In this document: positions 2,028-46,415 of the stretch, piece by piece
Layout: every line of letters starts with the position of its first letter
Position numbering within the stretch: position 1 is the stretch's first letter
Source: an uncultured virus (IMG/VR IMGVR_UViG_3300028805_000071)
Taxonomy: Duplodnaviria > Heunggongvirae > Uroviricota > Caudoviricetes
IMG/VR virus record: IMGVR_UViG_3300028805_000071
DNA length: 64,000 nucleotides
Strand: one strand, 5' to 3'
The notes under the pieces: model-generated
The model's input: only the letters and a program-made list of their open reading frames with translations
Told to the model about the DNA's origin: nothing
Databases searched by the model: none
Position numbers and translations under genes: made by a program

Positions 2028-2852
2028 ATGAATAGTATTGCTGAATATTTAGATGAAATTAAACAGTTCCCATTACTTGATGCAAATCAAGAGATGGAGT
2101 TAAGCAAACGTATTTTACAAGGGGACGAAAAAGCAAAAGAAGAATTAATTATATCGAATTTAAGATTAGTAGTATTTTTAAGTAAACCGTATCATGATAA
2201 AGGAATTGAATTAATTGATTTAATTCAGCAAGGAAATTTAGGATTAATAGAAGCAGCTGGTAAGTATGATTATACACAGGGAGCGAGGTTTGCGACTTAT
2301 GCGGGACATTATATAAAAAAGTATTTTACACAGATATTAACTGACCAATCCCGTTTAATTAGACTTCCAGCGAATGTAGTGGCAGATTTACAAACAATTA
2401 AAACGGCAAGTGCGCAATTATCTCAATCTTCAGAAGTAGACCCGACCTTAGAGGATTTGGCCAAAGCTACCGGATTAGATGCCGAATATATATCTCGAAT
2501 TATGGCGGCAAATATCTCCCCTACTTCATTAAATCAAACTATAGATGAAGATGGTGATACTTCATTGGAAGATATTATCCCAGATGCAAATGCATGGACT
2601 GGAGAAGAAGGCGAAAAAAGTTTAGCGGTTCATGAGGGGTTAATGAGAATTTTAAACACTTTACCCAAGAGAGAAAAGAATATTTTAATTAAACGATTTG
2701 GGCTAGATGACGGAGTACAAAAAAGTTTAGAAGAAGTTGGGCAATTAGTCGGATTAACGAAAGAAAGAGTTAGACAATTAGAAATTGTGGCATTAACTAA
2801 ATTAAGACAGCCATCACGAAAACAAATGTTAAGAGAAGAATGTATTTTATAA
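2028..2852 (+). CDS. phage RNA polymerase sigma-70 family factor (RpoD-like regions 1.2-4)
   Basis: YLDEIKQFPLL, NLRLVV, DLIQQGNLGLIEAAGKYD, RFATYA, SLEEVG...TKERVRQLE motifs. Confidence 0.92.
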   Translation: MNSIAEYLDEIKQFPLLDANQEMELSKRILQGDEKAKEELIISNLRLVVFLSKPYHDKGIELIDLIQQGNLGLIEAAGKYDYTQGARFATYAGHYIKKYFTQILTDQSRLIRLPANVVADLQTIKTASAQLSQSSEVDPTLEDLAKATGLDAEYISRIMAANISPTSLNQTIDEDGDTSLEDIIPDANAWTGEEGEKSLAVHEGLMRILNTLPKREKNILIKRFGLDDGVQKSLEEVGQLVGLTKERVRQLEIVALTKLRQPSRKQMLREECIL

Positions 2853-2865
2853 GAAGTCAAATTAC

Positions 2866-2894
2866 TTGACTTCTTTTTTATTATATGCTATAAT
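2866..2894 (+). promoter_or_regulatory. sigmaA-like promoter for the RNA ligase gene
   Basis: TTGACT-17 nt-TATAAT with TG extension. Confidence 0.7.
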
Positions 2895-2921
2895 ATTTAT
2901 ATATTATAAAGGAGAAATATT

Positions 2922-4151
2922 ATGTTAGATTCTAAACAAGTAAGACAATTAGCATATATTATTAAAATTGATAATGTAACTCCAATTCCTAACTATGATA
3001 GGGTTGAGCTGGCGCATATCGGTGGCTGGACAGTTGTAGTTGGTAAAGGTGAGTTTAAACCTAATGATTTAGCAATTTATTTTGAAATTGACTCTAAATT
3101 ACCAGAGGTAGAACCTTTTACCAATATGGAATTTTTAGTTAGCAAACATTATAAAATCAAAACACAAAAAATGTGCAAAAGTTTATCTCAAGGTTTATTA
3201 ATGTCTGCTGAAAATTTTGGTTGGACTGCTGACGCAGAAGCGATTTATGATACTGATGGCGTGGCGCACCGTTTAGACGATGAATCTCGTTTCTTAACTA
3301 AACAGTTAGGAGTTACATATGCGGTGGCTGAAGATAACAAACGTAAAGGCAGAGGTGTTGATAAATATTATTCTATGGCACAACGCCACAAAGAATTATT
3401 TAAACATCAACCATTCTATTGGTTAATGAAACGTAAATGGGGTAAAAAATTACTCTTCGTGTTCTTTGGGCGTAAAAAAGATAAAAGAGGTTGGCCAGCT
3501 TGGGTTAAAAAAACCGATGAAGAGCGTGTGGAAAATATGCTTTGGGTATTAGAAGATAAAACACCTTGGATGGCAACTGAAAAAATTGATGGCACTTCTA
3601 CCACTTTTACTTTAAAAAGAAATCATAATCCATTTGCCCCTAAATATGAATATTTAGTCTGCTCTCGTAATATCGCATTTGATAAACCATCTAAAAAAGG
3701 TTTCTATGATACTAACGTATATACAGAAATGAGCGACAAATATCATATTGAGCAAGTGCTTACTAATATTTTAGACACCGAACCTAAATATGAGTATATC
3801 ACTATTCAAGGTGAAACTTATGGTAAAGGTATTCAAGATAATGATTATGGTTTAAATAACCATCAATTAGCAATTTTCAATGTAATTTTTGGATATAAAG
3901 ATGGTACTCATCATCGTTTAAATCCAAATGCAATGCATACCTTCTTATCTATCTATGGATTACCAGGAGTACCATTACTAGATACAAATTATACATTACC
4001 CGATACTATTGAGGAGTTACGTGATTATGTTAATAGCGAAACTTCTCGCATCAATGGAAAAATGAAAGAAGGAATTGTGTTCAGGTCTTTTGACGGAGTA
4101 AGGTCTTTTAAATGCGTTTCTCCAGAGTATTTAATGAAACATCATAGCTAA
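2922..4151 (+). CDS. RNA ligase, DRB0094/Rnl2-like family
   Basis: N-terminal IPNYDRVELA..GW.VVV..GEF...D.AIYFEIDS; nucleotidyltransferase motifs TEKIDGTS, QGE, EGIV, FK. Confidence 0.85.
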   Translation: MLDSKQVRQLAYIIKIDNVTPIPNYDRVELAHIGGWTVVVGKGEFKPNDLAIYFEIDSKLPEVEPFTNMEFLVSKHYKIKTQKMCKSLSQGLLMSAENFGWTADAEAIYDTDGVAHRLDDESRFLTKQLGVTYAVAEDNKRKGRGVDKYYSMAQRHKELFKHQPFYWLMKRKWGKKLLFVFFGRKKDKRGWPAWVKKTDEERVENMLWVLEDKTPWMATEKIDGTSTTFTLKRNHNPFAPKYEYLVCSRNIAFDKPSKKGFYDTNVYTEMSDKYHIEQVLTNILDTEPKYEYITIQGETYGKGIQDNDYGLNNHQLAIFNVIFGYKDGTHHRLNPNAMHTFLSIYGLPGVPLLDTNYTLPDTIEELRDYVNSETSRINGKMKEGIVFRSFDGVRSFKCVSPEYLMKHHS

Positions 4152-4157
4152 AAAAAT

Positions 4158-4185
4158 AAACCCCTCGGTTATACCGAGGGGTTTT
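4158..4185. terminator. bidirectional intrinsic terminator
   Basis: AAACCCCTCGGT-TAT-ACCGAGGGGTTT hairpin between convergent genes. Confidence 0.8.
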
Positions 4186-4189
4186 AGTT

Positions 4190-5965
4190 TTATCTAATTG
4201 GGCCAAAGACGTTACCTGATGCATCTAATTGAGCTTCGTTTTGATAGAGTGATTTAATGTCGTCGGCTGATAAAGGTGTTGCATATACCCGATAGTCAGA
4301 TATGTAACCAGCTAAATTTGTGCCTACAGTTACTATATCTGGAATACCTCTTGGGGTAGATGTTTTATTTGGCCCATAATTATTTTTTAATACACCATTA
4401 ATATAGACATTTCTTGTTCCATCACTATTTTTAAATACAAAAGTAACATGTGTCCAAACTCCAGCGCTAACCGCTTGACTTCCATATATATAATAATCAT
4501 TTGTGCCATCATTTAAATATAATAAAGGTGTACTATTAGAAGCATGAACAATATTATTAGATATATTAAAATTGTTCATAGCTTGACTGCCTTGTGATGT
4601 ATTATCTAATTTAACCCACATTGCGCAAGTCCATTCTTGGTCTGTTCCTCCGAACACTGGACGTGGATGGGTTATTAACGTAGTTTTTGACATATAAGTG
4701 GACATTGAATATTTAGGAGTATCGGTTGAAATAGTTAAATTACCATTTATTGTACCATTATTGCAATATCCACTTGCATCATATATAATTGTTGATGTTC
4801 TTGTATTTGTAGTGAATGGAGTCGAGTGGTCTTTTTTCTCAACTTGTATACTACTAACATAAAACTGCTCTTGTGGAGCTATATATCCAACTACATAACA
4901 ATTTAAACTACTATTAGATGGAGTATCATAGTTCCATTTTAATGTGTATTCAATTCTTTGCCATTCATTTGTAAAAGTATAATCTTTACCAGTAGATTGA
5001 GTGTTTGTGCCATTGGTATTGTATAAATGAATATGTGCCCTTTTACCAATTGTTGCACCTTTTCCTTTAACATATGCTGTAACTGTGAAAGTATCATCTT
5101 TGTTCATAATTGTGCCGGGATATATGCTAGTTGCAATTTCTACCGCACCATTACCTGCTGTTGTTGCAGAACTCGTTACTAAAGCCACTTCATTTCCAGC
5201 TATTGGTGGTTCTACTTCTGTTGTAATTGAAATAGTACCCTTACTTCCAAAACCATAGCTACCATAATTTGAAAAACTTTTATTTTCTAAATAATTATAG
5301 GTTGATTCAATATTGCCATCACTTAATGGATAATGAAGCACCAATCCCTTTGAAAGCTCTTTGACTTCTATCGGAGAAAGACAATGGTCGTAGATGCGGA
5401 AATCATTTAAACTCCCCTCTTCATTGCCGCCGCTGGCATATTCTCCTAAATTAAATTTACCTGTAATTGAACCTCCAGCATGAGCGATAGTAAATTTAAG
5501 TTCATTATTAATATAGCAATTGATTCCTTCAGTTTCAGATACAATAACTGCAACATGATACCAAATATCTCGTGCACTAGAAATAACTAAATTAGACCCA
5601 TAAGAACCACCGCTATTAGGAAAAATAGCATAACTGGTATTATTATGCATACTTAAAATATAATTACTATATCCATAACTTGTTTCTAACCTAAACAGAC
5701 CTCCACCACTATCAAAAAATGCGACTACATCATTTCAATTAACTGTAGAGGTAGAAGTCTCTGGTTTATATCAAAAACAAAATGAAAAATTCTTTTTTCC
5801 TGATAAGGTAGGACAATTAAAAGTTAAATAATTATGTAAATTTAAACTTTTATTTCCTATTTTACCACTATCTTTAAAAACCGCCGTCCCTGACAATTGT
5901 TCAATTGTAGCTAAACCTTGATTTCTTAAATCTTTTGTAAGAGGAAGCCAAACTTGTAAACTCAT
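4190..5965 (-). CDS. LamG/concanavalin A-like domain virion protein (591 aa; two in-frame TGA=Trp)
   Basis: ORFs 5771-6031 and 4190-5650 are in one frame joined through TGA (FSFCF*YK, VN*ND); AAGGAGG SD before ATG 5965; LamG motifs WYHVAV, LNDFRIYDHCLS, ISDYRVYATPLS. Confidence 0.85.
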
Positions 5966-6108: not shown

Positions 6109-6366
6109 ATGATAGATATAAATACAAAAAAAGAAGAACTAAATAAGGAATTATTAGAAATCGATAAGCAAATAGTCGATTTATTAAATCAAAGGGCCGA
6201 TATATGTTATGACATTAATCAATTAAAACAAGAGGCCGATGAGTCATTATATGACCCAGTAGAAGAGTTAGACCTTCAAGAAACATTAGAATCAATATCC
6301 GATTATAACGGTATGATAAATGCTATATATCCAAGCATTCAAAAATATGGAAGGTCTCTGATTTAA
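6109..6366 (+). CDS. chorismate mutase type II (AroQ)-like protein, possibly inactive
   Basis: EIDKQIVDLLNQR...K...YDP pattern; the usual DPxRE reads DPVEE. Confidence 0.55.
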   Translation: MIDINTKKEELNKELLEIDKQIVDLLNQRADICYDINQLKQEADESLYDPVEELDLQETLESISDYNGMINAIYPSIQKYGRSLI

Positions 6367-6378
6367 AGGAGGAATTAA

Positions 6379-7497
6379 ATGAATATTTCAAAATATAAAA
6401 TAGATAAACCAGTTTTTGGCATCGATGTTAGTACTTGGCAGGCTGGTTTAAATTGGGATACAGCGATAAAAGAAGGAGTTAAGTTTGCAATATTAAGAGC
6501 AGGATTTACCGGCGACAAAGATGGTGTTAGTAAAAAAGTAGATAATCAATTTGAAATATTCTATAAAGAAGCTACTAAAAGAAAACTGCCTGTTGGCGCT
6601 TATTGGTTCAGTAGAGCAACAAGCTATGAGGCTGGACAAGCAGAAGCAAAATATATGTATGAGAATTGTTTAAAAGGCAAGCAGTTTGAATATCCAATAG
6701 CTATTGATATAGAAGACCCGGTATACCAAGCTAAGGCTAGTAAGAAGAAGGTAACTGACGCTGCAAAAGGATTCTGTGATTACTTAATTTCTAAAAATTA
6801 TTATCCAGTGATTTATGCAAATTTAAATTGGTTTAGAAATAAAATGACTTTATCTGAACTTACTAAATATGGCAAGTGGGTAGCTGCCTGGATGGAGAAT
6901 AAACCATCTTCACCAGTTAACTACTTATGGCAATTTGGCGGTGAAACGAACGTAATTAGGTCAAACAAAATTGCGGGTAAAACGGTAGACCAAGATTATT
7001 GCTACGTTGATATGCCCAAGTTTATAAAAGACAACAAATATAATGGATTTGATAAAGAAGAAACGAAGCCAGAACCTAAAGAAGAAACTCCCAAATTAAA
7101 GTTTAAAGTTGGAGATAAGGTTATTATTAAAGGCGAATTATATGTAAGTTCAAATGCCAGCAAGTCTGCTGGAAAAGTAGTTAAAGAATTAACTACTAAA
7201 ATCACCCGTGCAATACCTGGCGCAAAGCACCCTTACAATACTACTGGTAGCCTTGGCTGGATGGACGAAGAAGATATTAGATATGCGAAACCAAAGCCAT
7301 CGGTAACAGATGATGCGCAAACCCTTAAACCGGGCGATAAAGTTAAGGTATTAAACGCAGTTACTTATGAAGGCAAAAAGTTTATTGCTTGGTATGCTCA
7401 ATATACCGTATTTGAAGTAAATAAAAATAGAGTGGTAATTGGTGTTGGTAAAACAGTTACCGCCGCAGTTCATAAGAAGAATCTGCGCAAGATATAG
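6379..7497 (+). CDS. endolysin: GH25 muramidase with C-terminal cell-wall-binding (SH3-like) domains
   Basis: GIDVSTWQ, FAILRAG, GAYWF, IAIDIED, LWQF, VDQD motifs. Confidence 0.9.
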   Translation: MNISKYKIDKPVFGIDVSTWQAGLNWDTAIKEGVKFAILRAGFTGDKDGVSKKVDNQFEIFYKEATKRKLPVGAYWFSRATSYEAGQAEAKYMYENCLKGKQFEYPIAIDIEDPVYQAKASKKKVTDAAKGFCDYLISKNYYPVIYANLNWFRNKMTLSELTKYGKWVAAWMENKPSSPVNYLWQFGGETNVIRSNKIAGKTVDQDYCYVDMPKFIKDNKYNGFDKEETKPEPKEETPKLKFKVGDKVIIKGELYVSSNASKSAGKVVKELTTKITRAIPGAKHPYNTTGSLGWMDEEDIRYAKPKPSVTDDAQTLKPGDKVKVLNAVTYEGKKFIAWYAQYTVFEVNKNRVVIGVGKTVTAAVHKKNLRKI

Positions 7498-7894: not shown

Positions 7895-8083
7895 ATGAAA
7901 CATAACAAATGCCCGTTTAGGAAAGAAAAAAAGGTTTATGATTATAAGTACGCCGGCAATGGCAGTGCTATAGCAGATTATTATGAAGTATTTATGGATT
8001 GCATAGGAGCATCTTGCATGGCTTATGACGATGAACAACCAACTGGTAAATGTAAATTAATGATGGAGAAAACTAATGAGTAA
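7895..8083 (+). CDS. small Cys-rich hypothetical protein
   Basis: KCPF...DCIGASCMAY...CK pattern; overlaps the start of the next gene. Confidence 0.65.
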   Translation: MKHNKCPFRKEKKVYDYKYAGNGSAIADYYEVFMDCIGASCMAYDDEQPTGKCKLMMEKTNE

Positions 8084-8549
8084 TTTATATTTAATTTGCG
8101 GACAGCCAGCGTCCGGCAAATCAACAATTGCTAAATACTATGTCGATAAGCATCCCAAAACTAAATGGGTATCAAGAGATGCGATTAGATTTTCTTTATT
8201 AAAAGATGATGAGAGTTATTTTGATAAAGAAGATGAAACTTATCGCAAATTTGTAGGAGATATATGTGATAATTTATTAAATGGTTATCACGTTATTGCA
8301 GACCAGACTAATTTAACACCTAGCACAAGAAATAAATTATTAAAAGCCATTGCTCGAAAAGGTGGCACCTATGAGCATGTATATGCCATTTGGGTTAAAA
8401 CGCCATTAGAAACTTCATTAAAACGTAATGAAGGTAGAACAGGTAGAGAACACGTGCCGCCATATGCGATTACTGGTATGTTTAATAGAATGATACCGCC
8501 TTCAATAGAAGAAGGATTCGATGAAGTATTTGTAATTAATGAGGAATAG
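8076..8549 (+). CDS. polynucleotide kinase-like P-loop kinase (AAA_33)
   Basis: GQPASGKST, VSRDAIR, VIADQTNL, RNEGR motifs typical of PNK kinase domains. Confidence 0.85.
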   Translation: MSNLYLICGQPASGKSTIAKYYVDKHPKTKWVSRDAIRFSLLKDDESYFDKEDETYRKFVGDICDNLLNGYHVIADQTNLTPSTRNKLLKAIARKGGTYEHVYAIWVKTPLETSLKRNEGRTGREHVPPYAITGMFNRMIPPSIEEGFDEVFVINEE

Positions 8550-8550
8550 T

Positions 8551-9120
8551 ATGATTTTTGTAACAAGCGATTTACATTTTAATCACGATAGAGAATTTAT
8601 ATACAAGCCCCGTGGATTTGAATCAGTCCAAGAAATGAATGAGGGTATCATTGAGCGTTGGAATGCTGTCGTGCATGATGATGATATAGTATATCTTTTA
8701 GGAGATGTATGTCTTGGCGGTGGTACTCCAGAGATGTTGAATACAAATCGCAAACTCATTGAAAGATTAAATGGTAAAATTCATATTATCGCTGGTAACC
8801 ATGACACAGATAATCGAATTGTGATGTATAATACCTGCACAAACGTAATTGATGTTAAATGGGCAGATGTATTACATTATAAAAAATATCATTTTTATTT
8901 AAGTCATTATCCATCATTAACCGCTAATCTCCAAAAGGAGAGTTTGAAACAGTGTACATGCAATCTTTATGGGCATACACATCAAAACGAAAATTTCTTC
9001 AATGACATACCTTTTATGTATCATGTGGGGGTTGATTCTCAAAATTGCTATCCAGTATTATTAGATGTTATTATTGAAGAAATGGAGCAGAAAGTTATAG
9101 AGTGCCAAGAGCAGCTTTAA
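8551..9120 (+). CDS. calcineurin-like metallophosphoesterase
   Basis: TSDLHFNH, LLGD, GNHD, SHYP, GHTH, VGVD motifs. Confidence 0.88.
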   Translation: MIFVTSDLHFNHDREFIYKPRGFESVQEMNEGIIERWNAVVHDDDIVYLLGDVCLGGGTPEMLNTNRKLIERLNGKIHIIAGNHDTDNRIVMYNTCTNVIDVKWADVLHYKKYHFYLSHYPSLTANLQKESLKQCTCNLYGHTHQNENFFNDIPFMYHVGVDSQNCYPVLLDVIIEEMEQKVIECQEQL

Positions 9121-9131: not shown

Positions 9132-9581
9132 ATGAGTAAAATAAATTATAAGTGGGATGAAATTAATGGAGTCGCAGTGTGTAGTATTTTATATAAAGAT
9201 ACAGAATATGTAGGAACTGCGCAGTGCCATCCGGACGACGCTGATTTTAAAAGTCAGTTAATTGGAAGTGAGTTAGCATATTTAAGAGCTTGCTTAAAAG
9301 TATTACAGGGGTTAAAAAGAGAAAAGTGGACTGAATTAAAAGCACTTAGAAGTTTAGAAGGGTCACTAGTTCCTAGTCCTCGTTTTAATCCAGACTCTTT
9401 TGAAGCAAAAATGCTGACGAAAAGGATTGAAATTACTACTGAGGATATTGATGTTATTAAAGAATGTATCGATGATTTAAGAGATAAGATTCATCGTAAC
9501 ATTGAAGAAGGCGAAAACTTTTATCAAAGCATTAGAAAAAATAGAAAGCAACGAGAAGAGGCTCTAAAAGAGGTAGAATAA
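9132..9581 (+). CDS. hypothetical protein (149 aa)
   Basis: AAGGAG SD; G.A.CHPDD.F...G.ELA..RA pattern seen in phage proteins, followed by coiled coil. Confidence 0.75.
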   Translation: MSKINYKWDEINGVAVCSILYKDTEYVGTAQCHPDDADFKSQLIGSELAYLRACLKVLQGLKREKWTELKALRSLEGSLVPSPRFNPDSFEAKMLTKRIEITTEDIDVIKECIDDLRDKIHRNIEEGENFYQSIRKNRKQREEALKEVE

Positions 9582-10438
9582 TGATTAAAAAATATTTTAT
9601 AGTTAGTGATGTGCATTCGTTCTATAAAATTATGGTTGATGCATTAGATAAAGCGGGATATGAAAAAGATAATCCTAACCATTATTTAATATTTAATGGC
9701 GATATATTTGATAGGGGCGACGGCACATTAGAACTATACGACCTAGTGCGCACGCACCGGCCGGAAAATATTATTTTAATCAGAGGGAATCACGAATATC
9801 TTTTAAGAGATTGTCTGGTTAGAGGCGATTGTTTCTCATATGACTGGTCTAATGGAACTGCAAAAACCATTTGTAGTATAGCACATAATAAACCTTATAT
9901 AAATAATCGGCAAATTTATGACATTGGTGTTGATACTTACGCCGCTTGCTTAACTTTAAGAGATATGGGTGTTATCGAGTGGTTAGAAAGTGATAAATGG
10001 GTTAATTATTATGAGATTGGCCCATATATTATCACCCATTCATTTATTCCACTAGATGTAGATGGTATGCATCGCATGTTTGATTGTTTCTATAAAGCAG
10101 CCAACTCATATGGGTTAAATCCAGCATACAACTGGTTTGAATATAAAGATGATTGGCGCACTGAAGCAACCCCTAAACATTGGGAGGCTTGCACATGGGG
10201 CAATCCTTATGTGATGTATAATGCTGGATGGTTTGACCACGAAAAAGAAAAAGGTAAATATCTTATTAGTGGCCATTGGGGAACTTCAAGCTATTGGAAT
10301 GACGAAAATAATTACAATGCATTTCAAGATGACCATTTTATTGGATTAGATGCCACCACCGCATTAAGTAAACAAATTAATGTGGCAATTATTACAGAAG
10401 ATACAGAAGCCAATACATACAATTTAGAATTGAAATAA
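9581..10438 (+). CDS. metallophosphoesterase (Ser/Thr phosphatase-like)
   Basis: SDVHS, GDIFDRG, RGNHE, THS, GHW, IGLD motifs. Confidence 0.88.
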   Translation: MIKKYFIVSDVHSFYKIMVDALDKAGYEKDNPNHYLIFNGDIFDRGDGTLELYDLVRTHRPENIILIRGNHEYLLRDCLVRGDCFSYDWSNGTAKTICSIAHNKPYINNRQIYDIGVDTYAACLTLRDMGVIEWLESDKWVNYYEIGPYIITHSFIPLDVDGMHRMFDCFYKAANSYGLNPAYNWFEYKDDWRTEATPKHWEACTWGNPYVMYNAGWFDHEKEKGKYLISGHWGTSSYWNDENNYNAFQDDHFIGLDATTALSKQINVAIITEDTEANTYNLELK

Positions 10439-10530: not shown

Positions 10531-11022
10531 ATGTTAAAAGCATATACAGACGGTAGCGCAGTACATAATAGGTTAGCTGGAAATGTTGGCGGTTTTGGAT
10601 ATGTAATCGTCGATGAGCATGACCATATTATTGATGCGTTTTCTAGTCCACGAATAAAAAATACAACTAATAATGCACAAGAATTACTAGGCATATGGGC
10701 GGTACTTAAAAAGTATCCAAATGAAGAATTATCAATTTATAGTGATTCATATTATGCCCTTAATTCTATTTGCACTTGGATGTATACTTGGGCGAAGAAT
10801 GACTGGAAAAATACGGCTTGCCGAAGAATTGAAAACTATGATATTATAAAAACTATTTATGATTTTATGATTATTAAGAAACCAAAAGTAGAGTTTTATA
10901 AAGTCAAAGGACATAACGGCGATAAATATAATGAATTAGCAGATAAATTGGCAACGGGTGAAATTAAACCCGAAGCCATCTTATGGAAAGGGGATGCGTT
11001 GATTGGCGAAAGCGAAGAATAA
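10531..11022 (+). CDS. rnhA: ribonuclease HI
   Basis: YTDGS, TTNN.QEL, YSDS.Y, KVKGH.G.KYNELADKLA motifs. Confidence 0.92.
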   Translation: MLKAYTDGSAVHNRLAGNVGGFGYVIVDEHDHIIDAFSSPRIKNTTNNAQELLGIWAVLKKYPNEELSIYSDSYYALNSICTWMYTWAKNDWKNTACRRIENYDIIKTIYDFMIIKKPKVEFYKVKGHNGDKYNELADKLATGEIKPEAILWKGDALIGESEE

Positions 11023-16803: not shown

Positions 16804-16813
16804 TGTACAGATT

Positions 16814-37163: not shown

Positions 37164-37166
37164 GTA

Positions 37167-37203
37167 AAAGGGCAACCTAGTATAATTAGGTTGCCCTTTT
37201 TTT
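37167..37203 (+). terminator. intrinsic terminator
   Basis: AAAGGGCAACCTA/TAGGTTGCCCTTT hairpin plus T-run. Confidence 0.8.
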
Positions 37204-37231
37204 CATATGCATAGGAGAGGAGGGACTAAAA

Positions 37232-37711
37232 ATGAAATTATTAGCACTAGACCAAGCGTCGAAAATTACTGGTTACGCAATCTTTGAAGATGACAAATTA
37301 GTAAAGCACGGCAAGATTGATTTACGCGATGAAGAAGTTGGACCTCGGCTCGTACAATTAAGAGAAGCGATTAAGTTTTTAATTCATGAAAACCAAATAG
37401 ATTATGTTGCTTTTGAAGATATACAAATGCAATCTTCAGTAGGCAATAATGTTAAAACTTTTAAAGTACTGGCAAATGTTTTTGGAGTAATTTTAGAATT
37501 ATGCGAAGAGTTACACGCAAAATATGAAATTGTTTCATCTAATACTTGAAAGTCAACTTTAAAAATTAAAGGAAGAGGAAGAGCAGAACAAAAGAGAAAT
37601 GCCCAAAATTTTGTTGCTGAAACTTATGGCGTCCATTGTACGCAAGATGAGGCCGACGCCATTTGCATTGGTAGCCATATTATAAAAAGTTTAGGACATT
37701 ATTGAGGGTAA
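37232..37711 (+). CDS. RuvC-like Holliday junction resolvase (159 aa; two in-frame TGA=Trp)
   Basis: LALDQAS..TGYA, AFED; past TGA 37547 continues (W)KSTLKIKGRGRAEQK...QDEADAICIG to TAA 37711. Confidence 0.88.
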
Positions 37712-37732
37712 CGTAAGGAAGGAGTAGGAGTA

Positions 37733-38479
37733 ATGAGGGGATTAACAAAAGCAGCAAATTTATTCATTAAAGAGGCCCAAATAAAAAATGTCGCTATACA
37801 AAATAATTTTTTAATGCTGGCAATTAATGGAATGCTTGCTGGTTTTTTTATTGGTTTAACTGGATTTATGTTCCAGGAAACTTTATTATTTACTGGTAGT
37901 ATAATGATAGCAGCAGCGGTATTACCGTTAGGATTTATTTTATGTGATACATTTAAATCTGATTTATTTTCAACACATTTTTTATATTCATTAGCATCAT
38001 ATAAAAAAGATTTAACGTGGAAACAATTTGCGCTATCGGCATTATGTGTTACTTTATTTAATATTTTTGGAATAATTATTTTTATTTTAATGATGTGGGG
38101 AGCTGGCCAAATTCCAAATATTAGCACTATAGCACTTGGTGAAATTACTATGAAAACAGATGCTAATTTTTTTCAAACTTTTATTAAAGGTATTATTGGA
38201 TGCGTAGCTTCTTGTATGGGAGTATTCACTGCTAAACGCACAGACTCTGCATTTGAAAAAGTAATGTCCATTTGGATTTCAATGTTCACACTCGGCGTTT
38301 GCGGATTTGAACATGCAACTTTAGATTTATATCATTTCTTGGTATGTCAAGATACGGCTATTATGAGGGCATATTTCCCTAACCTTGTGTTAACTTACTT
38401 TGGCAATTTAATTGGTGGGTTAATCTTTGCGGGAATTGTAACCGGCATGTATAGCTTAAAAAACAACGAAAAGAATTAG
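37733..38479 (+). CDS. second FNT-family channel
   Basis: GMLAGFFIG, LPLGFIL, DLFS, KGIIG, GFEHA, GNLIGG motifs. Confidence 0.82.
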   Translation: MRGLTKAANLFIKEAQIKNVAIQNNFLMLAINGMLAGFFIGLTGFMFQETLLFTGSIMIAAAVLPLGFILCDTFKSDLFSTHFLYSLASYKKDLTWKQFALSALCVTLFNIFGIIIFILMMWGAGQIPNISTIALGEITMKTDANFFQTFIKGIIGCVASCMGVFTAKRTDSAFEKVMSIWISMFTLGVCGFEHATLDLYHFLVCQDTAIMRAYFPNLVLTYFGNLIGGLIFAGIVTGMYSLKNNEKN

Positions 38480-38497
38480 GAAAGGTTGGGAAAAAAT

Positions 38498-38926
38498 ATG
38501 GAGGGTTTAAACGCCTATTGGTTAGAAATCCTTTTTGGACTAGTTAGTGCAGCCGTTATGTGAGTCATTCATAGATTATCCAAAGAGGTAAATCGTTATA
38601 AAGAATTATTAGAAAATAAAGAAAATGCAGATTTCATCGCTATTGTAGATGATAAGATGAAACCAGTATTAGAGAAAATAGATAAATTAAACGACCAAAT
38701 GATGGGTTGTAAAGCGAAATTTGACCATAATATGGAACAAAATATTAGATATTATGGGACAATTTTACAAAATGATTGTGAAAATTATATTAGCCGCGGT
38801 TATGTAACTCATAAAGAATTCAATGAACTTGCCGAATTACTTCATATTTATGAAGAACTTGGCGGGGATGGTAAAATTCATGACCTTTATCAAAAGGTTA
38901 TGATGTTACCAGCGGAAGAAGATTAA
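38498..38926 (+). CDS. membrane-anchored holin-like protein (142 aa; TGA 38561-38563=Trp)
   Basis: ATG 38498 is in frame with ORF 38657; N-terminal hydrophobic YWLEILFGLVSAAVM(W)VI; C-terminal YEELGGDG pattern seen in lysis-cassette proteins. Confidence 0.7.
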
Positions 38927-38960
38927 AAAAAAGGGAGAGCTTAATGCTCTCCCTTTTTTT
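38926..38960. terminator. bidirectional terminator at the convergence of the + and - gene blocks
   Basis: A7-GGGAGAGC-TTAAT-GCTCTCCC-T7. Confidence 0.85.
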
Positions 38961-38966: not shown

Positions 38967-39061
38967 TGGCACGCCCCGTAGGATTCGAACCCACACCCAC
39001 CGCTTTGGACACGGTTACCCTGGTTTTGAAGACCAGTGTGCTACCATTACACTAGGGACGC
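38967..39061 (-). tRNA. UGA-decoding tRNA (anticodon TCA), Trp-type body, with a 25-nt extra arm
   Basis: GCGTCCC-TA-GTGT AATGGTA GCAC-A-CTGGT CTTCAAA ACCAG-[GGTAACCGTGTCCAAAGCGGTGGGT]-GTGGG TTCGAAT CCTAC-GGGGCGT-G-CCA; 7/5 acceptor/T stems, G73. Confidence 0.92.
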
Positions 39062-39261
39062 AAGTCATACTCGCCAGTTTGTCGAATTATATATTGCCCA
39101 TTCATTTCAATTGTGTCATAGTAATATCTTTTATTTAATTCATCTACACTAACACAAACTTCTACGGGCTCTTTAAAACTAACACCAAATAAAAAACTTT
39201 CATATTCTTTAAATTGGCGCACATCTTTAACTGTTATATAAATTTTTACATTATCTGACAT
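39052..39261 (-). CDS. hypothetical protein (69 aa), probably co-transcribed with the UCA tRNA
   Basis: AAAGGA SD; its last 10 nt overlap the tRNA 5' end. Confidence 0.6.
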   Translation of the reverse strand: MSDNVKIYITVKDVRQFKEYESFLFGVSFKEPVEVCVSVDELNKRYYYDTIEMNGQYIIRQTGEYDLRP

Positions 39262-39360: not shown

Positions 39361-41172
39361 TTAAGCAATATTGTGCATATTATTTAAATAAATTGTATTA
39401 TTATAAAGTTTAGTCATATCAGCTGCTGATAAAGCAGTTGCATATACACGCACGTCAGCAATGGAGCCAATAAATTGACGACTAGTTGATGTAGGATTTT
39501 CTCAATTGGGATGGACTTCCAAACCTATACAGCCAATTGTTTTGGATATATTTGCAAGTGCGCCTGTGCAAGCCACACTTGTATCTAATGAACCGTTTAT
39601 ATATAATTTTACATTACTAGCATCTCAAGTAATAGCTATATGACTTCATTGATTTAATGGTATAGTGCCTGTACTATTGTGGTATCCAGCAGGCGATTTA
39701 CCATATGAATAAGCACTTAAATGCCCCGTACTATCAATAGTTAAATATTGACCACGATAAATTAAAATACAATCTCTATCAGTATTTCTTGCTTTTGGAT
39801 AAACCCATGCCGCTAATGTTAAATTAGTAGCACCTTCATAATCAGGCGGATTTAATATAGCGCAACTTTGCCCTGAAGTAAAATCTGCACAAACTGGATA
39901 AATATGCGTATCACCTGTTCATTGTAAATTATCAGATTTAATACCATGAATATCAAAGCCACTAATATCTTCAATTGCATTAGAATTTAATCCCATTAAC
40001 TTTCCAAGAGTATCAGTTGAATTTGGAATTCAACCAGTTGCTGTAGAACCTTTTTCTAATTTACAGTGTCGTAATTTATAAGTAAATGACGACCCAGCCT
40101 CTCCGGATACAGTAAAACAATAATCAATATACTGAGTATCCGCATCAGGTTTAAATGTTAAAGTAAATTTTTGCCATTTGTTTACTGCCGTAAAATTTTG
40201 AGGATTGGTTCCGCCTCTTCATATCCAAGGACTTGTTGCATTTCCATTATTATAAGATAATCCAATGCATAACGGTTTAGAGGTTTGTGTACTTTGTGCT
40301 TCACATGAAATCGTATAATATGAATTAGAGTCGAGTGCAATATCGCTTGCTTTTCTACAAAAAGCAATACCTATATTGCTGGCGCTATCCACAGTAATAG
40401 TATCTATGCCATTTGCAATATTATGGTTTGATGCAGCTCCATTATAAAATCCACATGGTCGATTTTCCCAACCGCCAGCATTATTACCAAACAACGTACC
40501 TATTTCTTCTTTATCAAATGCCGTTGCTTGAAATAAATTTTCTGAAGGAAAACCTTGCCGAGTTAATGGATAGTGTACCGCTAATCCAGTGGCGAGTGTT
40601 GCTACATCGTTTGCTGATAGACATTCATTGTAAATGCGCACATCATTGAATTTTACATTGCAATAATTTGCTTGATTGAATCTACTCCCCAATGTAAATG
40701 TTAACGCACCATAATTTGCCCCTTTTGCTGCGGTAGATGTTCCAATCAATGCACCGTTTATATAAACTTTGCCCTCAGATGGTGAATGTGTAACACAAAC
40801 ATGATATCATGTATTAGCTGCTCATGTATAATTAAAATATACATATGAGGATTTACTACATCCAATTTGAATTTGAGTATTTGTAATATACATTGGCTGA
40901 TATCCAACGTCGCCATTTGAAGAAATACGTCCATCAAAAACATGTTTTCCTCCCGGTAATGTTGGGAAATAAATCCATGCAGCAAAAGTGATGTTATCAG
41001 TTCCTTCATACGTGCCCGTTAAATAATCATTAGAGCCATCAAAACTATAACAACCGCCCATAGGACAGCCAACGCTATTATCATAAGTAGCCCCATTATT
41101 TGTAATAGTCACATCACTTAATCCTTTTTGTCTTAAATCCTTATTTAAAGGAAGTCAAACTTGTAAACTCAT
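39361..41172 (-). CDS. LamG-domain virion protein (603 aa; at least 9 TGA=Trp), paralogue of 4190-5965
   Basis: AAGGAGG SD; MSLQV*LPL start; fragments 40822-41112 and 40219-40749 share one frame; NT*YHVCVT, NQ*SHIAIT*D, IADVRVYATALS motifs. Confidence 0.88.
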
Positions 41173-41197
41173 ATAATTTTTTCCTCCTTTCAAGAAT

Positions 41198-43555
41198 TTA
41201 ATTTAATAAAAATTGTAAACCTATAGCATTATTAATTTTTACGACATTTATACGAATATTTTGACCGGTTGAAGTTGTGCATATAGCAGATACGGGTAAA
41301 TTTAAATCAACCCCATAATCACTCCATAAAGCATATGGGAAATAACGCTCATGGTCACTTTCTGGAATTGAAATTGTTCCACAATTGCCTACATTTAAGG
41401 TAATAGTACCACCATACGCTTCAGTCATTGCGTCCAATTCATCATAATCAATATATACTCATCCATAATCATCTGTTTTATTACGAATTCAAGCATTCGC
41501 CGCATCGCTATTATTTCCTATATCATATGACCCCAAAAGCATAGATATGGATGTATTCGTTGCAATTGGCTTACCAACAATAGCGCCGCCACCAGTTCCA
41601 AAGACAATCTTTCAAACACCGTTTACTAATACCCAAGCGGAAATAACTTCTTTTCATTCCCCACCATGTTTAGCGTATAAAGTATTGCCAGTGTTTCAAA
41701 TATTATTTTTTTGTCCTCATGTAATAATTTTATTGCGCCATTGAGCAGTTAACGTTATATTAGTTGGTATAACATTAGCAGCTTTAATCACATCTCCCGG
41801 TTGAATAATTGCATTATTATCGCTACGTTTCCAACCTAAAAAATCTTTGCCAAATACCTCTGGCGCATTCGCGGCAACCGTTTGAGTGGTGTATCGCATT
41901 GTTACTGCATCTGGAACGGTACCGAAGCCTCCGTTATTGTAAGTTAAAGTAGCAGTATCTTCTTTTCAATTGGCGTATAAAGTAATTGTTTTATCCGCAG
42001 TAATTTCCGTGCCGCCATTAAGTCGTTTTGTAGTAACTGGATTAGTTTCACCGGCCGCAGTATTTTGCTGATTAAATAAATTACCAGTTCCACTTGTATT
42101 TAACGCATAAGCTGTTTCAGTATCAATATGGTATCCTGTTTTCTTTAATCCAAAAGTACTAACATTTCATAAATTATAATATGTACTTTCTACAGACGGA
42201 GAGGATGTAACATCGGCTCATGTGCTGCCATTATCTGTTGATAATTCAACTAAACTGTCACTACCAAGCCGTCACAACCCATCTACACTGGAATAGCCAT
42301 TAGCAATTGTACCCCCATTAGCATGATATTTAATAGTTACATGACAAGGAGTTCATTGAGCAATCATATTATATGTATTGCCATTAGTTGATGTTCAACT
42401 ACCTGACATATTATATTTATCAGGATAATGACGAATTTCGCCATCTGATGCGCCAGTTCATTGCCATTCATTAAATTTATAACCAGTTTTAGTAAAACCA
42501 ACAGCTGGAAATGCTAATGCTGTTCCATAAGTATGCGTTTGATTGGCCATTGAACCACTAGTAGCGCCGTTCCCGTCAAAATGTATAGTTCAAGTATTTA
42601 AAGCTCAATGAGCATATCAAGTAGCTCCAGACGTCAGAGTAAATTGACGCACTGAGTTACCGGACGCATTATATCATTGGGTGCCACCAGATGTAGCATC
42701 ATAGTATCCTAAGAAATGGTGTCCAGTATATGTTGGTTTGGTAATTGATGGATAACTACCGGCCGCAGTGCCTGTTCTAATTTGAACACTAGTAGTACCA
42801 CCGCTGCCACCATTTGCATTTAAAGTAATTGTTTGTAGCTTGCCTTGGAAACTAGCCGTTGCTGTGCCTGATGTCGTTTGAGACATAGTAACACTTGCGC
42901 TAGTATTACCTCCACTTCACCCTCCGGAATAAGTCCATTTAACGAATTCATAACCTGCTTTAGGAGTGGCTGTAATGGTAAATGATGCGCCAGAAGTATA
43001 AGTTCCGCCTCCAGTAACAGTACCCATAGTAGTATCTGCTGATACAACAGTAGCAGTAATAGTGCTAGTATAAGATGGCGCAGCAATTGATACTGTATAT
43101 GTATCTTGCAAGCCATTATCACGCATTTGAAATTTAAATGTTTTTGAACCACTTGTCCAATTAGAAATAGTCCAGCTACCTATTGTTCCAGTTTTTTGAG
43201 TAGGCTTAGTTTTTACGTCAATATTTGAATCATCACCATGTGCAGAAAAATAGGTAGCTGTATTACTAGTACACTTCCATTTAGTACCACTGCTATTAAT
43301 AACTTTAGATGGATGAGTACTATCTGACCAAGTACCTTCTCATGCGTAAATAGTTACTTGATATTGAGTATAAGACGCACTTGAATTAGCATAACTACCA
43401 AAACCTAAATAATAATAAGCTGTAACAGAAACATTTTTTGATGTTTCTGAACTTCTGGTACAAACAAATTTAATAACACCACCAATATGTGGGCCATCAT
43501 CAAATGCAGCATCCTTAGGGCCGGAGTTTTTAATATAGCCTGTTTTTGTTGACAT
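41198..43555 (-). CDS. adhesin or tail-associated protein with Listeria-Bacteroides (InlB B-type) repeats (785 aa; about 19 TGA=Trp)
   Basis: Five ORF-track fragments in one frame, joined only by TGA; repeat motifs TLNANGG, KTGYKF, YAH*, TLYAN*, LTAQW. Confidence 0.85.
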
Positions 43556-43571
43556 AGACTACCGCACCCCC

Positions 43572-44147
43572 TTATTTCCACTGTCCATTAATATATATAT
43601 CAGCACTAACAGTTCCTGTGTTGCCATTTCTTACAAAACTCAATCCGACTTGTGTCGTAGTACGCGTACGCATACCGGCAGTCCAACCGACGTTGCTCCC
43701 TACTGCTGCGGCGGTAGCCATAGCATAATAATTAGCATTTGCCATCGTAAAAGGAAGAGCAATATCAACTGGTGTCGAATAATACATTGCATACCCATTT
43801 GTTGGAGTACCATAATTATTTCAAGTTAAACTACTACTAGAAAAATGGCCTCAGCACTCTGCAACACCGCTTGCCCATTTTCTATAGGTTCAAATTCCGC
43901 TCGCGCCTTGGTCAACTATCCAGTCAGCCTGGCCTCCACTCGCATCTCCATATTTTAATCAAATACTATTTTCAGGATATGCCTCTGGGGTTGAAGCGTC
44001 TTGATTAGACACTATTATTTTTCCTCTATCTTCGGGAGTAAAATACAACTCATCAGAATTAATTTGCCCATTCTGTAGAGCTATATTGTATTGTTCTTGG
44101 GTGAGATAGTTTATTTTGAATTCAGTTAAATTTTGTGTGCTTGCCAT
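43572..44147 (-). CDS. tail fibre-associated protein with gp53-like C-terminal domain (191 aa; 4 TGA=Trp)
   Basis: I*TYRKWASGVAEC*G motif; fragments 43959-44147 and 43572-43787 in frame. Confidence 0.82.
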
Positions 44148-44184
44148 ATATTCCTCCCCCCCCTCCTACATTTCAAAGGAGGTC

Positions 44185-45642
44185 TTAAAAGACTTTGCGC
44201 CAAGTCCCATCGACATTGACTCAAATATCTTGTATTTTCTTTCAAGTTTTATTTATATTTGCTCAATAGCTATATAATTTTAATCATTCAGAATCTGTGT
44301 TTGCAGCTATTGGTAATTCATATTTGTTTGTTGGCGGCGCTGCTTGTCAAACAGCATAAAGATTAATTGTACCACCATTAGATGAAGTTAAATTTAAAAC
44401 TGACTGGCCATTCGTATAATCACGTGTTCCAGCATCCGCTTTGGCTTGAGTAGTTGCTCATCCATAAAAAATATAGCCAGGCTTGGTAAAACCATTCGTT
44501 GTTAATTTTTTACTAGTTCCATAATAATGGGTCGATGAATTAGTACTTCCTATTGCACCAGTCGCATTATATTTAATTGTATAAGAATTTGGTTGTCAAT
44601 TAACATAAATACTAACTGTTTTATCTGCGGTTAATGTTGTACCGCCATTTAAATTTGTAGTATTAGCGACATTTGTGCTACTGGCCGTCGACTCTTGATT
44701 AATATCAACCCCAGTGCCATCCGCTTTAGTATTATATGCTTTAGTACCAGTTATATGATACCCAGTTTTAGTCGCATTATATGTTGCAACGTTTCATAAA
44801 TTAATATAAGAATCAGCGGTTGTCATTGATGAAACCAGTGTAGAATATGGCCCATCAGCTGTAGTTGTTGAAACTGTTACTAAATTGTTTGAGTATTTAA
44901 ATCAACGACTATTTGTTCCATCTTGATGTGGTGCATCAGCTATTGTGCCGCCATTTAAATTATGCTGTATTTTTAATACTGGATAACGTACAATACTTAT
45001 ATTTACGCTTGGGGAATTATGTGGTGCCGTAGCAGTTACTGTAAAAGTATTTGTGCCATAAGCCAAATCTACCGTGCAAGATGTCGCCGTACCTGAATAA
45101 ACTTGCGTTGAACCTTTTTTAACAGTATACCCAGTAATTGCATTACTAGTGCCATTAGTTCCTTTCCATTTAAGTGTTCCAGTTGCAGAGTTTTGCGGTG
45201 ATGTAGTGCCATTGTTTGCAACAGAAGCGTTGCTTCATAAATTAATTGTAGTTAATACCGCAGTGCCACTTGCTGTTACTACGCCAGTTGAAGTACCATT
45301 AGTATCAAACCTTGCTGAAATTGTAATAGATTTTGACCCATTGCTAGTATGAGTTATACTTTTTGATTTTGATATAAGGGTTACAGTTGAACCTGACCAA
45401 TAATTTAAAGTTGCGTTATAACTAGTTCCATCTATTGTTAAAGTTACCCATGTTGGGTCTCCATCGGAATGTGACCCAAATGAATTTTCTAAATATACAG
45501 TTGCATATACAGTTGATGTGTTAGTTGTACTATTTATGCTATTTGCATCTTCATATCAATCAATACGCAAACGATTGTAACTATAACCATAGCTAGTATT
45601 TCCTACATAATTACCATATATACTCCCACTTTTATTAGCCAT
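44185..45642 (-). CDS. minor structural protein: DUF859-like N-terminus and B-type repeats (485 aa; about 11 TGA=Trp); absent from the ORF track
   Basis: AAGGAGG SD, ATG 45642; open except for TGA to TAA 44185; GYIFYG*A, NLYAV*, C-terminal T*KKIQDI*VNVDGTWRKVF. Confidence 0.82.
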
Positions 45643-45653
45643 ACATTACCTCC

Positions 45654-46415
45654 TTATGCCGTTCTATGCCATCTATTAACAACTATATAAGGTTGCATGA
45701 CAGAAATTGATTTAGCAGTGCCGGTAAAAGTATGCTTATGACTTTCTGCTGTACCAGTAAAACCATGATTATGAGCTCCTCCACCGCCTTTAGCATTGGT
45801 ATTTTGCACAGATGTTTCAGACGTCGTACCATACCAGCCTCTTTGAATTGCTGAAGAGGCGCCAACACCACCATTATATGCATTAAATCCATGGTAATGT
45901 GAAGGAATTTCATTAATCGTAAGTGTATGATTACCAACAGTTCCTTTAGGAGTAACAGATGTATTCTCTACAGTACCGCTAGGCGTATAACTAACACTGG
46001 TCGCACCGCCAGTAGCTCCAGTACTATATCCAGTACCTGCTGATACATGTACTCGCCCAGCTGTTTCTAGCTCTCAAGTACCACCTCAACTAGTCTCAGG
46101 ATTAAAATTTGCATCACTGGTTTCATAATAACTACCGACTGGGTAAAACATATCAAGTAATGTCATTTCACTACCGTACTTCATCCATACTGTTCCATTT
46201 GGATAATCAGTTGCGTTTGTAGCGTCTTCACTTGACAAAACGATATTTTTTAAATTGGCTGTTGCATAGCCGGTTGTTGCGGGGGCCGCTGTCTGGGCCC
46301 CCTTTCCACTATCAGTTAAAATATAAACTTCATCATCATTTACAGTCGCACCGTCATATTGCGCCTGTGTTAAAAAATTGATTTTTAAAGTTGACAAATC
46401 GTGTGTTTCAGACAT
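45654..46415 (-). CDS. baseplate or tail collar-type protein (253 aa; 2 TGA=Trp)
   Basis: YPVGSYY....NP..S*GGT*E, HTLTINEIPSHYH, VNRWHRTA C-terminus. Confidence 0.85.

Follow-up and report, generated by a model that had tools for sequence, protein, structure and literature searches.

Tryptophan-coding TGA codons in part of the genes of an uncultured tailed phage, and its tRNA(UCA) with an extra anticodon-like hairpin

The uncultured Caudoviricetes phage of IMG/VR record IMGVR_UViG_3300028805_000071 raises the question of how one genome can carry replication genes without a single TGA codon and distal tail genes that are filled with in-frame TGA. The window analyzed here is the whole 64-kb stretch of this record (64,000 nucleotides, G+C = 34.5%), in which a plus-strand block at 46-38926 converges on a minus-strand block at 39052-64000. 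Pfam identified sigma-70, RNA ligase, a GyrB/GyrA-type topoisomerase, ClpP, DnaB, RecJ, an SF1 helicase, DnaE, NrdD/NrdG, dUTPase and RuvC in the plus-strand block, called the early block below, and PHROGs and Pfam identified tail, fibre and lysis genes in the minus-strand block. An earlier note on this DNA had claimed that TGA for tryptophan (Trp, W) is segregated by gene function. TGA is indeed Trp in this phage. The phage uses this reading in some genes only, and late-gene recoding is the likely explanation.

Distribution of TGA and TGG codons

The gene set (n = 61) was built from open reading frames (ORFs) with TGA read as sense, and starts were adjusted where a TGA preceded the evident start. 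It contained 63 TGA among 306 Trp codons, and 16 of the 61 genes carried TGA. The following replication, nucleotide and transcription genes of the early block were supported by Pfam, and all of them stopped at TAA or TAG:

2028-2852, plus strand, sigma70
2922-4151, plus strand, RNA ligase
8076-8549, plus strand, kinase
8539-9120 and 9581-10438, plus strand, phosphoesterases
10531-11022, plus strand, RNase H
11003-12910, plus strand, GyrB-like
12910-15255, plus strand, GyrA-like
19944-20918, plus strand, AAA_24
21530-23059, plus strand, DnaB
23329-24426, plus strand, early gene with Pfam support
24426-26150, plus strand, RecJ
26173-27345, plus strand, SF1 helicase
27603-31301, plus strand, DnaE
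31534-32094, plus strand, guanylate kinase
32154-34379, plus strand, NrdD
34919-35422, plus strand, NrdG
36618-37163, plus strand, dUTPase

These 18 genes, lying between 2028 and 37163, contained 98 TGG and no TGA. They are complete without TGA, and the claim that the early genes can be read in the standard code is borne out. The 22 other plus-strand genes contained 40 TGG and 5 TGA. Five consecutive distal tail genes (class T1, 39361-46415) contained 26 TGG and 45 TGA:

39361-41193, minus strand, tail-fibre-like protein with two Laminin_G_3 domains and CBM_4_9 (LamG fibre), 5 TGG and 9 TGA
41198-43555, minus strand, Listeria-Bacteroides (Flg_new) repeat protein, 10 TGG and 19 TGA
43572-44147, minus strand, tail-fibre C-terminal domain protein (phrog_2712), 4 TGG and 4 TGA
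44185-45642, minus strand, tail protein with a phrog_372 N-terminus and repeats resembling those of 41198-43555, 4 TGG and 11 TGA
45654-46415, minus strand, Gp10_C-type tail protein, 3 TGG and 2 TGA

Class T2 (four genes, 47627-55123) contained 29 TGG and 8 TGA, and class T3 (six genes, 55136-63754) contained 25 TGG and 1 TGA:

47627-48376, minus strand, tail/fibre gene, 2 TGG and 0 TGA
48380-51727, minus strand, long fibre, 21 TGG and 2 TGA
51747-52718, minus strand, tail/fibre gene, 2 TGG and 1 TGA
52736-55123, minus strand, tail/fibre gene, 4 TGG and 5 TGA
55136-57616, minus strand, fibre-like protein of 826 amino acids (aa), 3 TGG and 0 TGA
57630-58061, minus strand, small ORF of 143 aa, 0 TGG and 1 TGA, at codon 136 of 143
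58286-58957, minus strand, 223-aa protein, 2 TGG and 0 TGA
58980-60914, minus strand, 644-aa tandem immunoglobulin (Ig)-like protein, 7 TGG and 0 TGA
60945-61163, minus strand, 72-aa protein, 1 TGG and 0 TGA
from 61181, minus strand, leucine-rich repeat (LRR_5) protein running off the window, at least 1202 codons, 19 TGG and 0 TGA

Taken together, the tail classes on the late strand contained 80 TGG and 54 TGA, the four lysis genes 18 and 2, and a LamG fibre paralogue at 4190-5965 7 and 2, respectively. The manual estimate of about 4-19 TGA per gene at 39361-45642 agreed with the exact counts of 9, 19, 4 and 11 (beside 5, 10, 4 and 4 TGG), and the TGG-only usage reported for 55136-57616 and for the LRR-region genes at 58286-63754 was also found (25 TGG and no TGA in five genes). 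Replication genes differed from T1 with Fisher p = 7e-23, and the comparisons of T1 with T3, T1 with T2 and T2 with T3 gave p = 8e-8, 4e-5 and 0.07, respectively. Uniform usage across the 61 genes of the window was rejected, with none of 20,000 permutations as extreme as the observed heterogeneity (p <= 5e-5). All 45 TGA-free genes stopped at TAA (37) or TAG (8), and none at TGA. The T1 genes are also rich in Trp, with 3.06 W per 100 codons versus 0.94-1.49 in the other tail genes; their TGG density by itself is ordinary (1.1 per 100 codons), and a comparably high W content is seen in LamG-family homologues elsewhere (14-18 W per roughly 570-700 aa).

The amino acid was established by alignment of the LamG fibre (39361-41193) with 57 homologues. 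At five of its nine TGA sites, W was found in 54 of 55, 56 of 57, 41 of 52, 51 of 57 and 57 of 57 homologues (79-100%), and the remaining four sites were variable columns in which W is not conserved. Over all nine columns, W filled 291 of 452 non-gap cells versus a background of 2.6%. The common N-terminus of the LamG paralogues, MSLQVWLPL, is written with TGG in 4190-5965 and with TGA in 39361-41193, the repeat-final W of the Flg_new repeats in 41198-43555 is either TGA (YAHw, IAQw, YANw) or TGG (TAQW), and the long fibre has one copy of the motif DGTW with TGA and another with TGG. Greedy ORF coverage rose from 0.861 in code 11 to 0.951 in code 4 and the median ORF from 160 to 192 aa, while coverage with TAG as sense was only 0.888. 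Opposite 12 aligned TGA codons of G001, one of the relatives described below, the window had W seven times, Y three times, L once and a gap once. Readings of TGA as selenocysteine (Sec), Ser, Leu or Tyr were ruled out, since W dominates the TGA columns of the LamG alignment. Fibre homologues in prophage-like regions of bacterial genomes used TGG only (24/0, 15/0, 15/0, 16/0 and 20/0 TGG/TGA), and in two further ones (11/1 and 16/1) the single TGA lies 2-23 codons before a TAA and reads as a stop. The tail and receptor-binding genes of the window are unreadable unless TGA is Trp, and the phage tRNA(UCA) adjoins them.

Local base composition had been named as a possible sole cause of the TGA pattern, and it does not explain the split. 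The A-ending share of the five two-fold A/G codon pairs was 0.80 in replication genes and 0.83-0.85 in the tail classes (T1 0.85), out-of-frame TGA was found at 23.5 per kb in replication genes versus 13.9 per kb in T1, and the correlation of relative synonymous codon usage (RSCU) between T1 and replication genes was 0.97. Base composition and codon usage were ruled out as the cause by these three measures. GC was 0.366 in T1 versus 0.342 in replication genes and third-position GC (GC3) was 0.196 versus 0.246, with T1 within the range of the remaining late genes.

Segregation by function is nevertheless incomplete. Replication genes without TGA and distal tail genes rich in it agree with the claim, but the following genes cut across it:

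1694-2008, plus strand, 104-aa ORF, TGA at codon 48
4190-5965, minus strand, LamG fibre paralogue within the early block, 7 TGG and 2 TGA
6379-7497, plus strand, GH25 lysin, 9 TGG and 0 TGA
15973-16287, plus strand, SPP1-type holin, TGA at codon 65, within the Pfam match (residues 26-96)
16796-17782, plus strand, protein with a transmembrane segment, a coiled coil and GIY-YIG, TGA at codon 8
37232-37711, plus strand, RuvC-like resolvase, TGA at codons 106 and 158
38486-38926, plus strand, 146-aa membrane protein, contains TGA
46455-47523, minus strand, lysis cassette
46455-47228, minus strand, endolysin (PG_binding_1) of this cassette, 4 TGG and 1 TGA (codon 51)
47212-47523, minus strand, holin beside the endolysin, 1 TGG and 0 TGA

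RuvC and a holin in the early block carry TGA, and the GH25 lysin, the holin beside the endolysin, the 826-aa fibre and the LRR module are without it. The five plus-strand genes with TGA, the fibre paralogue at 4190-5965 and the TGA-bearing genes in 45654-55123 had been overlooked. Within 16796-17782, no in-frame ATG, GTG or TTG follows TGA codon 8 before position 17273. Codon 106 of RuvC is TGA in the G001 orthologue too, and codon 158 aligns with a G001 TGG. A perfect TTGACA-17-TATAAT site (1632-1660, plus strand) precedes ORF 1694-2008 by 34 bases and also lies ahead of the sigma-factor gene; either this ORF terminates at TGA codon 48, or an early transcript includes a TGA-bearing gene.

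The tRNA(UCA) and its extra hairpin

Three elements were identified at the junction of the two gene blocks:

38967-39061, minus strand, tRNA(UCA) of 95 nt, called 'SeC' by ARAGORN and matched by the Rfam tRNA model with 55.7 bits
39326-39354, minus strand, sigma-70-type promoter-like TTGACT-17-TATAAT (11/12, consensus match only), upstream of ORF 39052-39261 and the tRNA
38926-38960, minus strand, terminator-like hairpin and T run just past the tRNA, where the plus and minus blocks converge

The promoter-like site is one of three intergenic, correctly oriented sites with at least 11/12 matches in the window. Judged by these consensus matches, the tRNA(UCA) may form a promoter-to-terminator unit of its own.

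The body of the tRNA(UCA) resembles tRNA-Trp and includes G73 and a CCA end. The anticodon loop is CUUCAAA, and the 5' half of the tRNA is 87-91% identical over 34-38 nt to tRNA-Trp genes of Bacillus phages. The Rfam alignment showed a 22-nt insertion in the variable region, and the predicted fold is a cloverleaf with an extra 5-bp hairpin at this place. The loop of this hairpin is 7 nt long (GUCCAAA) and reproduces the anticodon loop of tRNA-Trp (CCA). A tRNA-Sec has an 8-bp acceptor stem and a long D stem, and serves rare UGA codons directed by a selenocysteine insertion sequence (SECIS). The acceptor stem of 7 bp and D stem of 4 bp, the 63 TGA codons in the window and the W-dominated TGA columns ruled out this identity, and an origin of the suppressor from a class II tRNA (Ser, Leu, Tyr) was ruled out because the TGA columns hold W. 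Class II tRNAs and tRNA-Sec resemble the window tRNA in their long extra arm between the anticodon and T arms, but the loop sequence of the extra arm is conserved in the window type, which is not known as a feature of class II extra arms.

This conservation was seen when IMG/VR was searched with a pattern in which nothing but the anticodon arm and the T loop was fixed and the variable region was left free. The search returned 19 contigs, and UCCAAA was present in the extra-hairpin loop of all 19 as well as in the window (20/20), while the same flanks with a short variable loop were found in only 5 contigs. A wider pattern that required the UCCAAA motif returned 49 contigs with 38 distinct sequences. 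In the MAFFT alignment of these, in which a few rows were out of register and were counted as unpaired, the extra helix had changes on both sides at 5/5 pairs with 89.6% of cells paired, and the covariation score of the whole structure was reached by 0/500 shuffles. In phages that also carry a tRNA-Trp(CCA), the top of the extra arm consists of the same 13 letters as the anticodon arm of that tRNA. Long-armed tRNA(CUA) were found in IMG/VR at 45 loci with 28 distinct variable regions; 20 of the 28 contained U-CUG-A or U-UUG-A (Gln anticodons) versus 1.27 expected from shuffles, and the Trp motif UCCAAA was found in none of the 28.

Activity data were taken from PMC12636597. In that study, 31 phage tRNA(UCA) were screened in E. 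coli extract, 9 of them marked as low-confidence predictions. By our own reading of the printed sequences, 13 of the 31 carry the hairpin (12 with UCCAAA and 1 with the variant CUCCACA). Each of these 13 gave an RFU_TGA (relative fluorescence units, RFU) of 26,699-58,947, and only two of the other 18 exceeded 12,000 RFU (Fisher p = 5e-7), in a comparison of groups that also differ in the tRNA body. Trp was inserted by all 13 tRNA(UCA) in the mass spectrometry of PMC12636597, a set that may differ from the 13 hairpin carriers. One tRNA of that study, tRNACUA-44, combines a CUA anticodon with a Trp-type UCCAAA hairpin and is a strong TAG suppressor (RFU_TAG 56,217); it may be one of the 29 tRNAs analyzed there by mass spectrometry. 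The extra arm is not mentioned in the searched text of PMC12636597, and no description of a tRNA with a spare anticodon arm was found in the literature searched, which did not cover subscription journals and preprint supplements.

The tRNA(UCA) is most likely charged by the host tryptophanyl-tRNA synthetase (TrpRS); neither the window nor five relatives contain a TrpRS or release factor (the RF-1 and TrpRS/TyrRS families had no match in 5/5 relatives, in which the controls matched, or in the window). The anticodon identity missing from UCA itself is probably provided by the extra hairpin, which duplicates the anticodon arm of Trp CCA. The stronger proposal, that the long variable arm functions as an anticodon arm in its own right and shows its CCA loop to host TrpRS while the UCA arm reads UGA, is in our judgment evenly balanced. 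The arm may act as a handle, or it and the UCA arm may exchange positions when the tRNA folds differently. Amino acid choice would thereby be uncoupled from the codon read, and the same device with CUG or UUG loops would serve TAG-to-Gln suppressors. RNA hairpins that copy an anticodon loop for the matching synthetase occur in mRNA, as in the E. coli thrS operator, where a mimic of the anticodon arm recruits the synthetase, and in yeast HisRS mRNA. Those mimics regulate translation from the mRNA, whereas the mimic of the window sits inside a tRNA that reads another codon.

The 'Jade' phages (Borges et al. 10.1101/2021.08.26.457843; PMC12636597), said to infect Firmicutes, share the TGA-to-Trp switch and have a code-change operon of TrpRS, RF1 and tRNA-UCA. 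They thus bring their own TrpRS, unlike the window and its five relatives. The Jade tRNA(UCA) numbers 11 and 13 of PMC12636597 are of ordinary length without the hairpin and gave RFU_TGA of 6,236 and 6,052, which is background in the absence of their own TrpRS, whereas the hairpin-bearing type of the window is active alone in E. coli extract. The crAss-like and Lak phages that read TAG as Gln are similar in their late-gene-biased recoding with phage suppressor tRNAs and differ in codon, amino acid and hosts (Bacteroidota), and tRNA(CUA) of their kind show the parallel design with a Gln-anticodon loop in a long variable arm.

Relatives and rival explanations

Three relatives were compared with the window: G001, an IMG/VR record of 175 kb rated complete, and G002 (136 kb) and G003 (127 kb), both found via the tRNA. 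G001 shares the early block in the same order (30-77% protein identity) and the TGA-free late module, and G002 and G003 share the early block at 30-68% identity. Eight core replication orthologues contained 52, 43 and 53 TGG in G001, G002 and G003, respectively (148 together), and no TGA, and all other genes contained 411/214, 281/157 and 210/165 TGG/TGA. TGA was present in 41-44% of genes of at least 100 aa in the relatives. NrdD and NrdG do contain TGA in the relatives, unlike in the window. NrdD is interrupted by a 186-aa ORF in G001 (135953-138985) and G003 (35689-38762); the G003 copy resembles the GIY-YIG protein of the window, and the G001 copy contains 0 TGG and 3 TGA. The tRNA arrays of G001 and several relatives include tmRNA genes (ARAGORN; Rfam 81.6 bits in G001).

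The TGA level appears to track the gene family and to be kept among relatives. G002 has 2/14 TGG/TGA in its LamG homologue, 11/2 in its long-fibre orthologue and 16/12 in its tape measure, with 11/13 in a 1299-aa protein and 7/8, 6/6 and 3/9 in tail proteins, and its head module has 2/0 in the portal, 5/0 in a 343-aa protein (phrog_4088, no annotated function) and 4/0 in a 464-aa protein. The G001 orthologues of the TGA-free late module of the window contain 42 TGG and 2 TGA, and large genes upstream of them 52 TGG and 37 TGA. The orthologues of this module are 28-56% identical between the window and G001, and both genomes have TGG in 12 of the 13 W columns that they share there. Of 72 database homologues of the 644-aa protein, 70 are uninterrupted ORFs over at least 94% of its length.

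Such data bear on the proposal that TGA has no regulatory role, and that AT-biased mutation turns TGG into TGA wherever this is tolerated, first in fast-evolving receptor-binding genes. The T1 share of TGA (0.63) nears the 0.85 A-ending share of other A/G pairs, the four LamG TGA sites at non-conserved W columns are as expected for newly arisen Trp codons, and orthologues vary freely, as in the GH25 lysin, which has no TGA in the window, 2 TGG and 7 TGA in G001 and 8 TGG and 0 TGA in G003. However, TGA would be expected to appear at the divergence seen in the TGA-free module, and its TGG columns and uninterrupted 644-aa family therefore argue against drift alone, as does the absence of TGA from 246 Trp codons of replication genes in four genomes. 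We regard drift without regulation as possible but doubtful. A second proposal takes TGA as a dosage attenuator, in which ribosomes are lost to release factor 2 (RF2) so that low-copy tail-tip proteins bear many TGA and high-copy virion proteins none. The nearly TGA-free head module of G002 and its TGA-rich tape measure, 1299-aa, tail and LamG fibre genes fit this proposal, but 19 TGA at 90% read-through per codon would leave 13% of the product, and few or no TGA occur in two further proteins that should be low-copy, the long fibre and the LRR protein. Attenuation is unlikely as the explanation.

The earlier note had offered recent acquisition of TGA-rich modules as an alternative, in which the genes came from a more fully recoded phage and the pattern reflects ancestry, not function. 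Exchange of tail-fibre modules is common. G001 lacks the block 39361-58061 at the syntenic site, which is flanked by its orthologues of ORF 39052-39261 and 58286-58957, and it has no orthologue of any of the five T1 genes, which is weak positional support. However, the codon usage of T1 is indistinguishable from the rest (RSCU 0.97, GC and GC3 within the range of other late genes), TGA also occurs in scattered backbone genes with RuvC sharing a TGA codon with G001, and family-specific TGA levels recur in G002 at 26-52% identity. Recent acquisition therefore seems a poor candidate.

A further proposal is a host that uses code 4, lacks RF2 and itself translates TGA as Trp, in which case the TGA-free replication genes would be incidental. 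Among full-length genomic matches of the LamG fibre family, the best were found in metagenome-assembled genomes titled Izemoplasmatales, Erysipelothrix and 'Scybalousia', which we take to be lineages near Mollicutes, and G001 lacks a tRNA(UCA), both as a recoded host would allow. These matches have only 24-31% identity and come from mixed phyla, and the window NrdD is only 26-35% identical to those of five genomes with LamG matches. The fibre homologues in those genomes are TGG-only (e.g., 24/0, 15/0 and 11/1). Further points against a recoded host are the phage's own tRNA(UCA) and the absence of TGA from 98 Trp codons of replication genes in the window and 148 in the three relatives despite an A-ending preference of 0.80. 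TGA occurs in 16 of 61 genes, not in nearly all as in phages of TGA-recoded hosts, for which about 90% is reported by Borges et al. (10.1101/2021.08.26.457843). A recoded host is highly improbable. A search for the host through the formate/nitrite transporter (FNT) found no relative among the species genomes searched.

TGA at conserved Trp columns, a rise in coding density, an own tRNA(UCA) and TGA-free replication genes were all found, as in a late-recoded phage. The segregation of TGA is thus of an already published kind. Borges et al. (10.1101/2021.08.26.457843) describe TGA-recoded Agate phages of about 127-154 kb, and report for crAss-like and Agate phages that replication genes are in the standard code and structural and lysis genes are recoded, that 26-71% of genes are recoded in phages of standard-code hosts, and that loss of TGA as a stop precedes recoding. 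The window resembles Agate phages as a large low-GC phage with TGA as Trp, standard-code replication genes, recoded and dispersed structural/lysis modules, a tRNA(UCA) and TGA abandoned as a stop, and by eye the G002 tRNA differs from tRNAUCA-10 of an Agate representative (PMC12636597 supplement 2) at about 5 of 96 positions. In the ~127-kb Agate phages, TGA is preferred by three families, namely the endonuclease of an intron within an early gene, a tail protein encoded alongside the lysis cassette, and one membrane protein (Borges et al. 10.1101/2021.08.26.457843); the ORF that splits NrdD resembles the first of these, and the strongest TGA use in the window lies in the five genes downstream of the lysis cassette. 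The window may thus be part of a large phage of the SPbeta/'Agate' kind. The replication of the pattern in three relatives and the conserved TGA-free late module are added here; this module and the tRNA architecture are not discussed in the parts of Borges et al. available to us.

Other features of the window were as follows. A metagenome contig of 75 kb shares 10,040 bases with the window at 100% identity and extends 789 bases past the window end, and the LRR_5 frame is open to the end of this contig, so that the gene does not start at 63754; its G001 orthologue has 2295 aa. An identical 644-aa protein is present on contigs up to 152 kb. The 'baseplate' label given to 58286-60914 in the earlier note found no family, PDB or Foldseek support and is neither supported nor refuted. 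The 644-aa and 826-aa proteins had no PDB sequence match and in Atlas only unnamed viral clusters plus a 0.77 lead to BppU_N, and the AlphaFold model of the 644-aa protein (pLDDT 73.7) retrieved with Foldseek only generic tandem Ig/fibronectin type III (FN3) chains (TM 0.1-0.3). No relatives of the 485-aa tail protein were found in IMG/VR and no terminase within the window. DnaE is 39-41% identical to DnaE of Enterococcus and SPbeta-like Bacillus phages, and megablast of 24 kb versus cultured phages matched only nrdD of two Thomasclavelia phages (73%). The early block also encodes two FNT-family genes (34303-34926 and 37733-38479), the longer without a close relative among 185,579 species genomes, as well as a chorismate mutase (6109-6366) and a ClpP protease (15340-15939).

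A proposed model of late-gene recoding

Several observations weigh against late-gene recoding as a full account. Lysis and tail genes without TGA exist (GH25 lysin 9/0, holin 1/0, fibre 3/0, LRR 19/0), and the small TGA-bearing ORF 1694-2008 stands directly behind a perfect sigma-70-type promoter match. The tRNA(UCA) unit has its own near-consensus sigma-70-type promoter and therefore need not be a late transcript; a host-type promoter of this kind could make it an early one. A gene with 19 TGA requires near-complete suppression, and a tRNA alone versus RF2 may not suffice. G001 uses TGA as Trp broadly, yet none of its 12 tRNA matches is a tRNA(UCA), so that the tRNA(UCA) is not the sole route to TGA reading in this lineage. 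The sole tRNA-Trp of G001 has the anticodon CCA, and its first anticodon-stem pair was flagged as non-standard by Infernal, a feature reminiscent of the short-stem tRNA-Trp with which some protists are said to read UGA. The standard-code host and the temporal switch are themselves what we infer.

Late-gene recoding, the reading that we favor, would work as follows. The host would use the standard code, and genes needed before the phage alters the cell would therefore have to avoid TGA. The genes with TGA (distal tail/receptor-binding genes, one endolysin, one holin and RuvC) would be finished only after the suppressor tRNA builds up, and TGA codons would gate them post-transcriptionally, following the model of Borges et al. 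(10.1101/2021.08.26.457843). Among late genes, LamG-type and repeat fibres and the tape measure have a high TGA density, and head genes, the long fibre and the LRR/644-aa module have a density near zero. This family-specific density suggests that TGA is selected against in part of the late genes, perhaps for high dosage or earlier need, which may act on top of AT-biased drift to TGA where tolerated. With TGA density conserved by family and one late module still without TGA after deep divergence, neither timing nor drift suffices on its own.

The segregation of TGA is one more well-documented case for the published model, with three relatives as replicates, and it sharpens that model in that gene families among the late genes keep their TGA density and a late-strand module is TGA-free across deep divergence. 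If the proposed role of the spare arm is true, this design would account for a late-gene code switch with a tRNA alone, and a phage could reassign a stop codon in any standard-code host without a synthetase of its own. If the hairpin makes host TrpRS accept a UGA reader, it would be a natural solution for stop codon reassignment and for engineered suppressor tRNAs.

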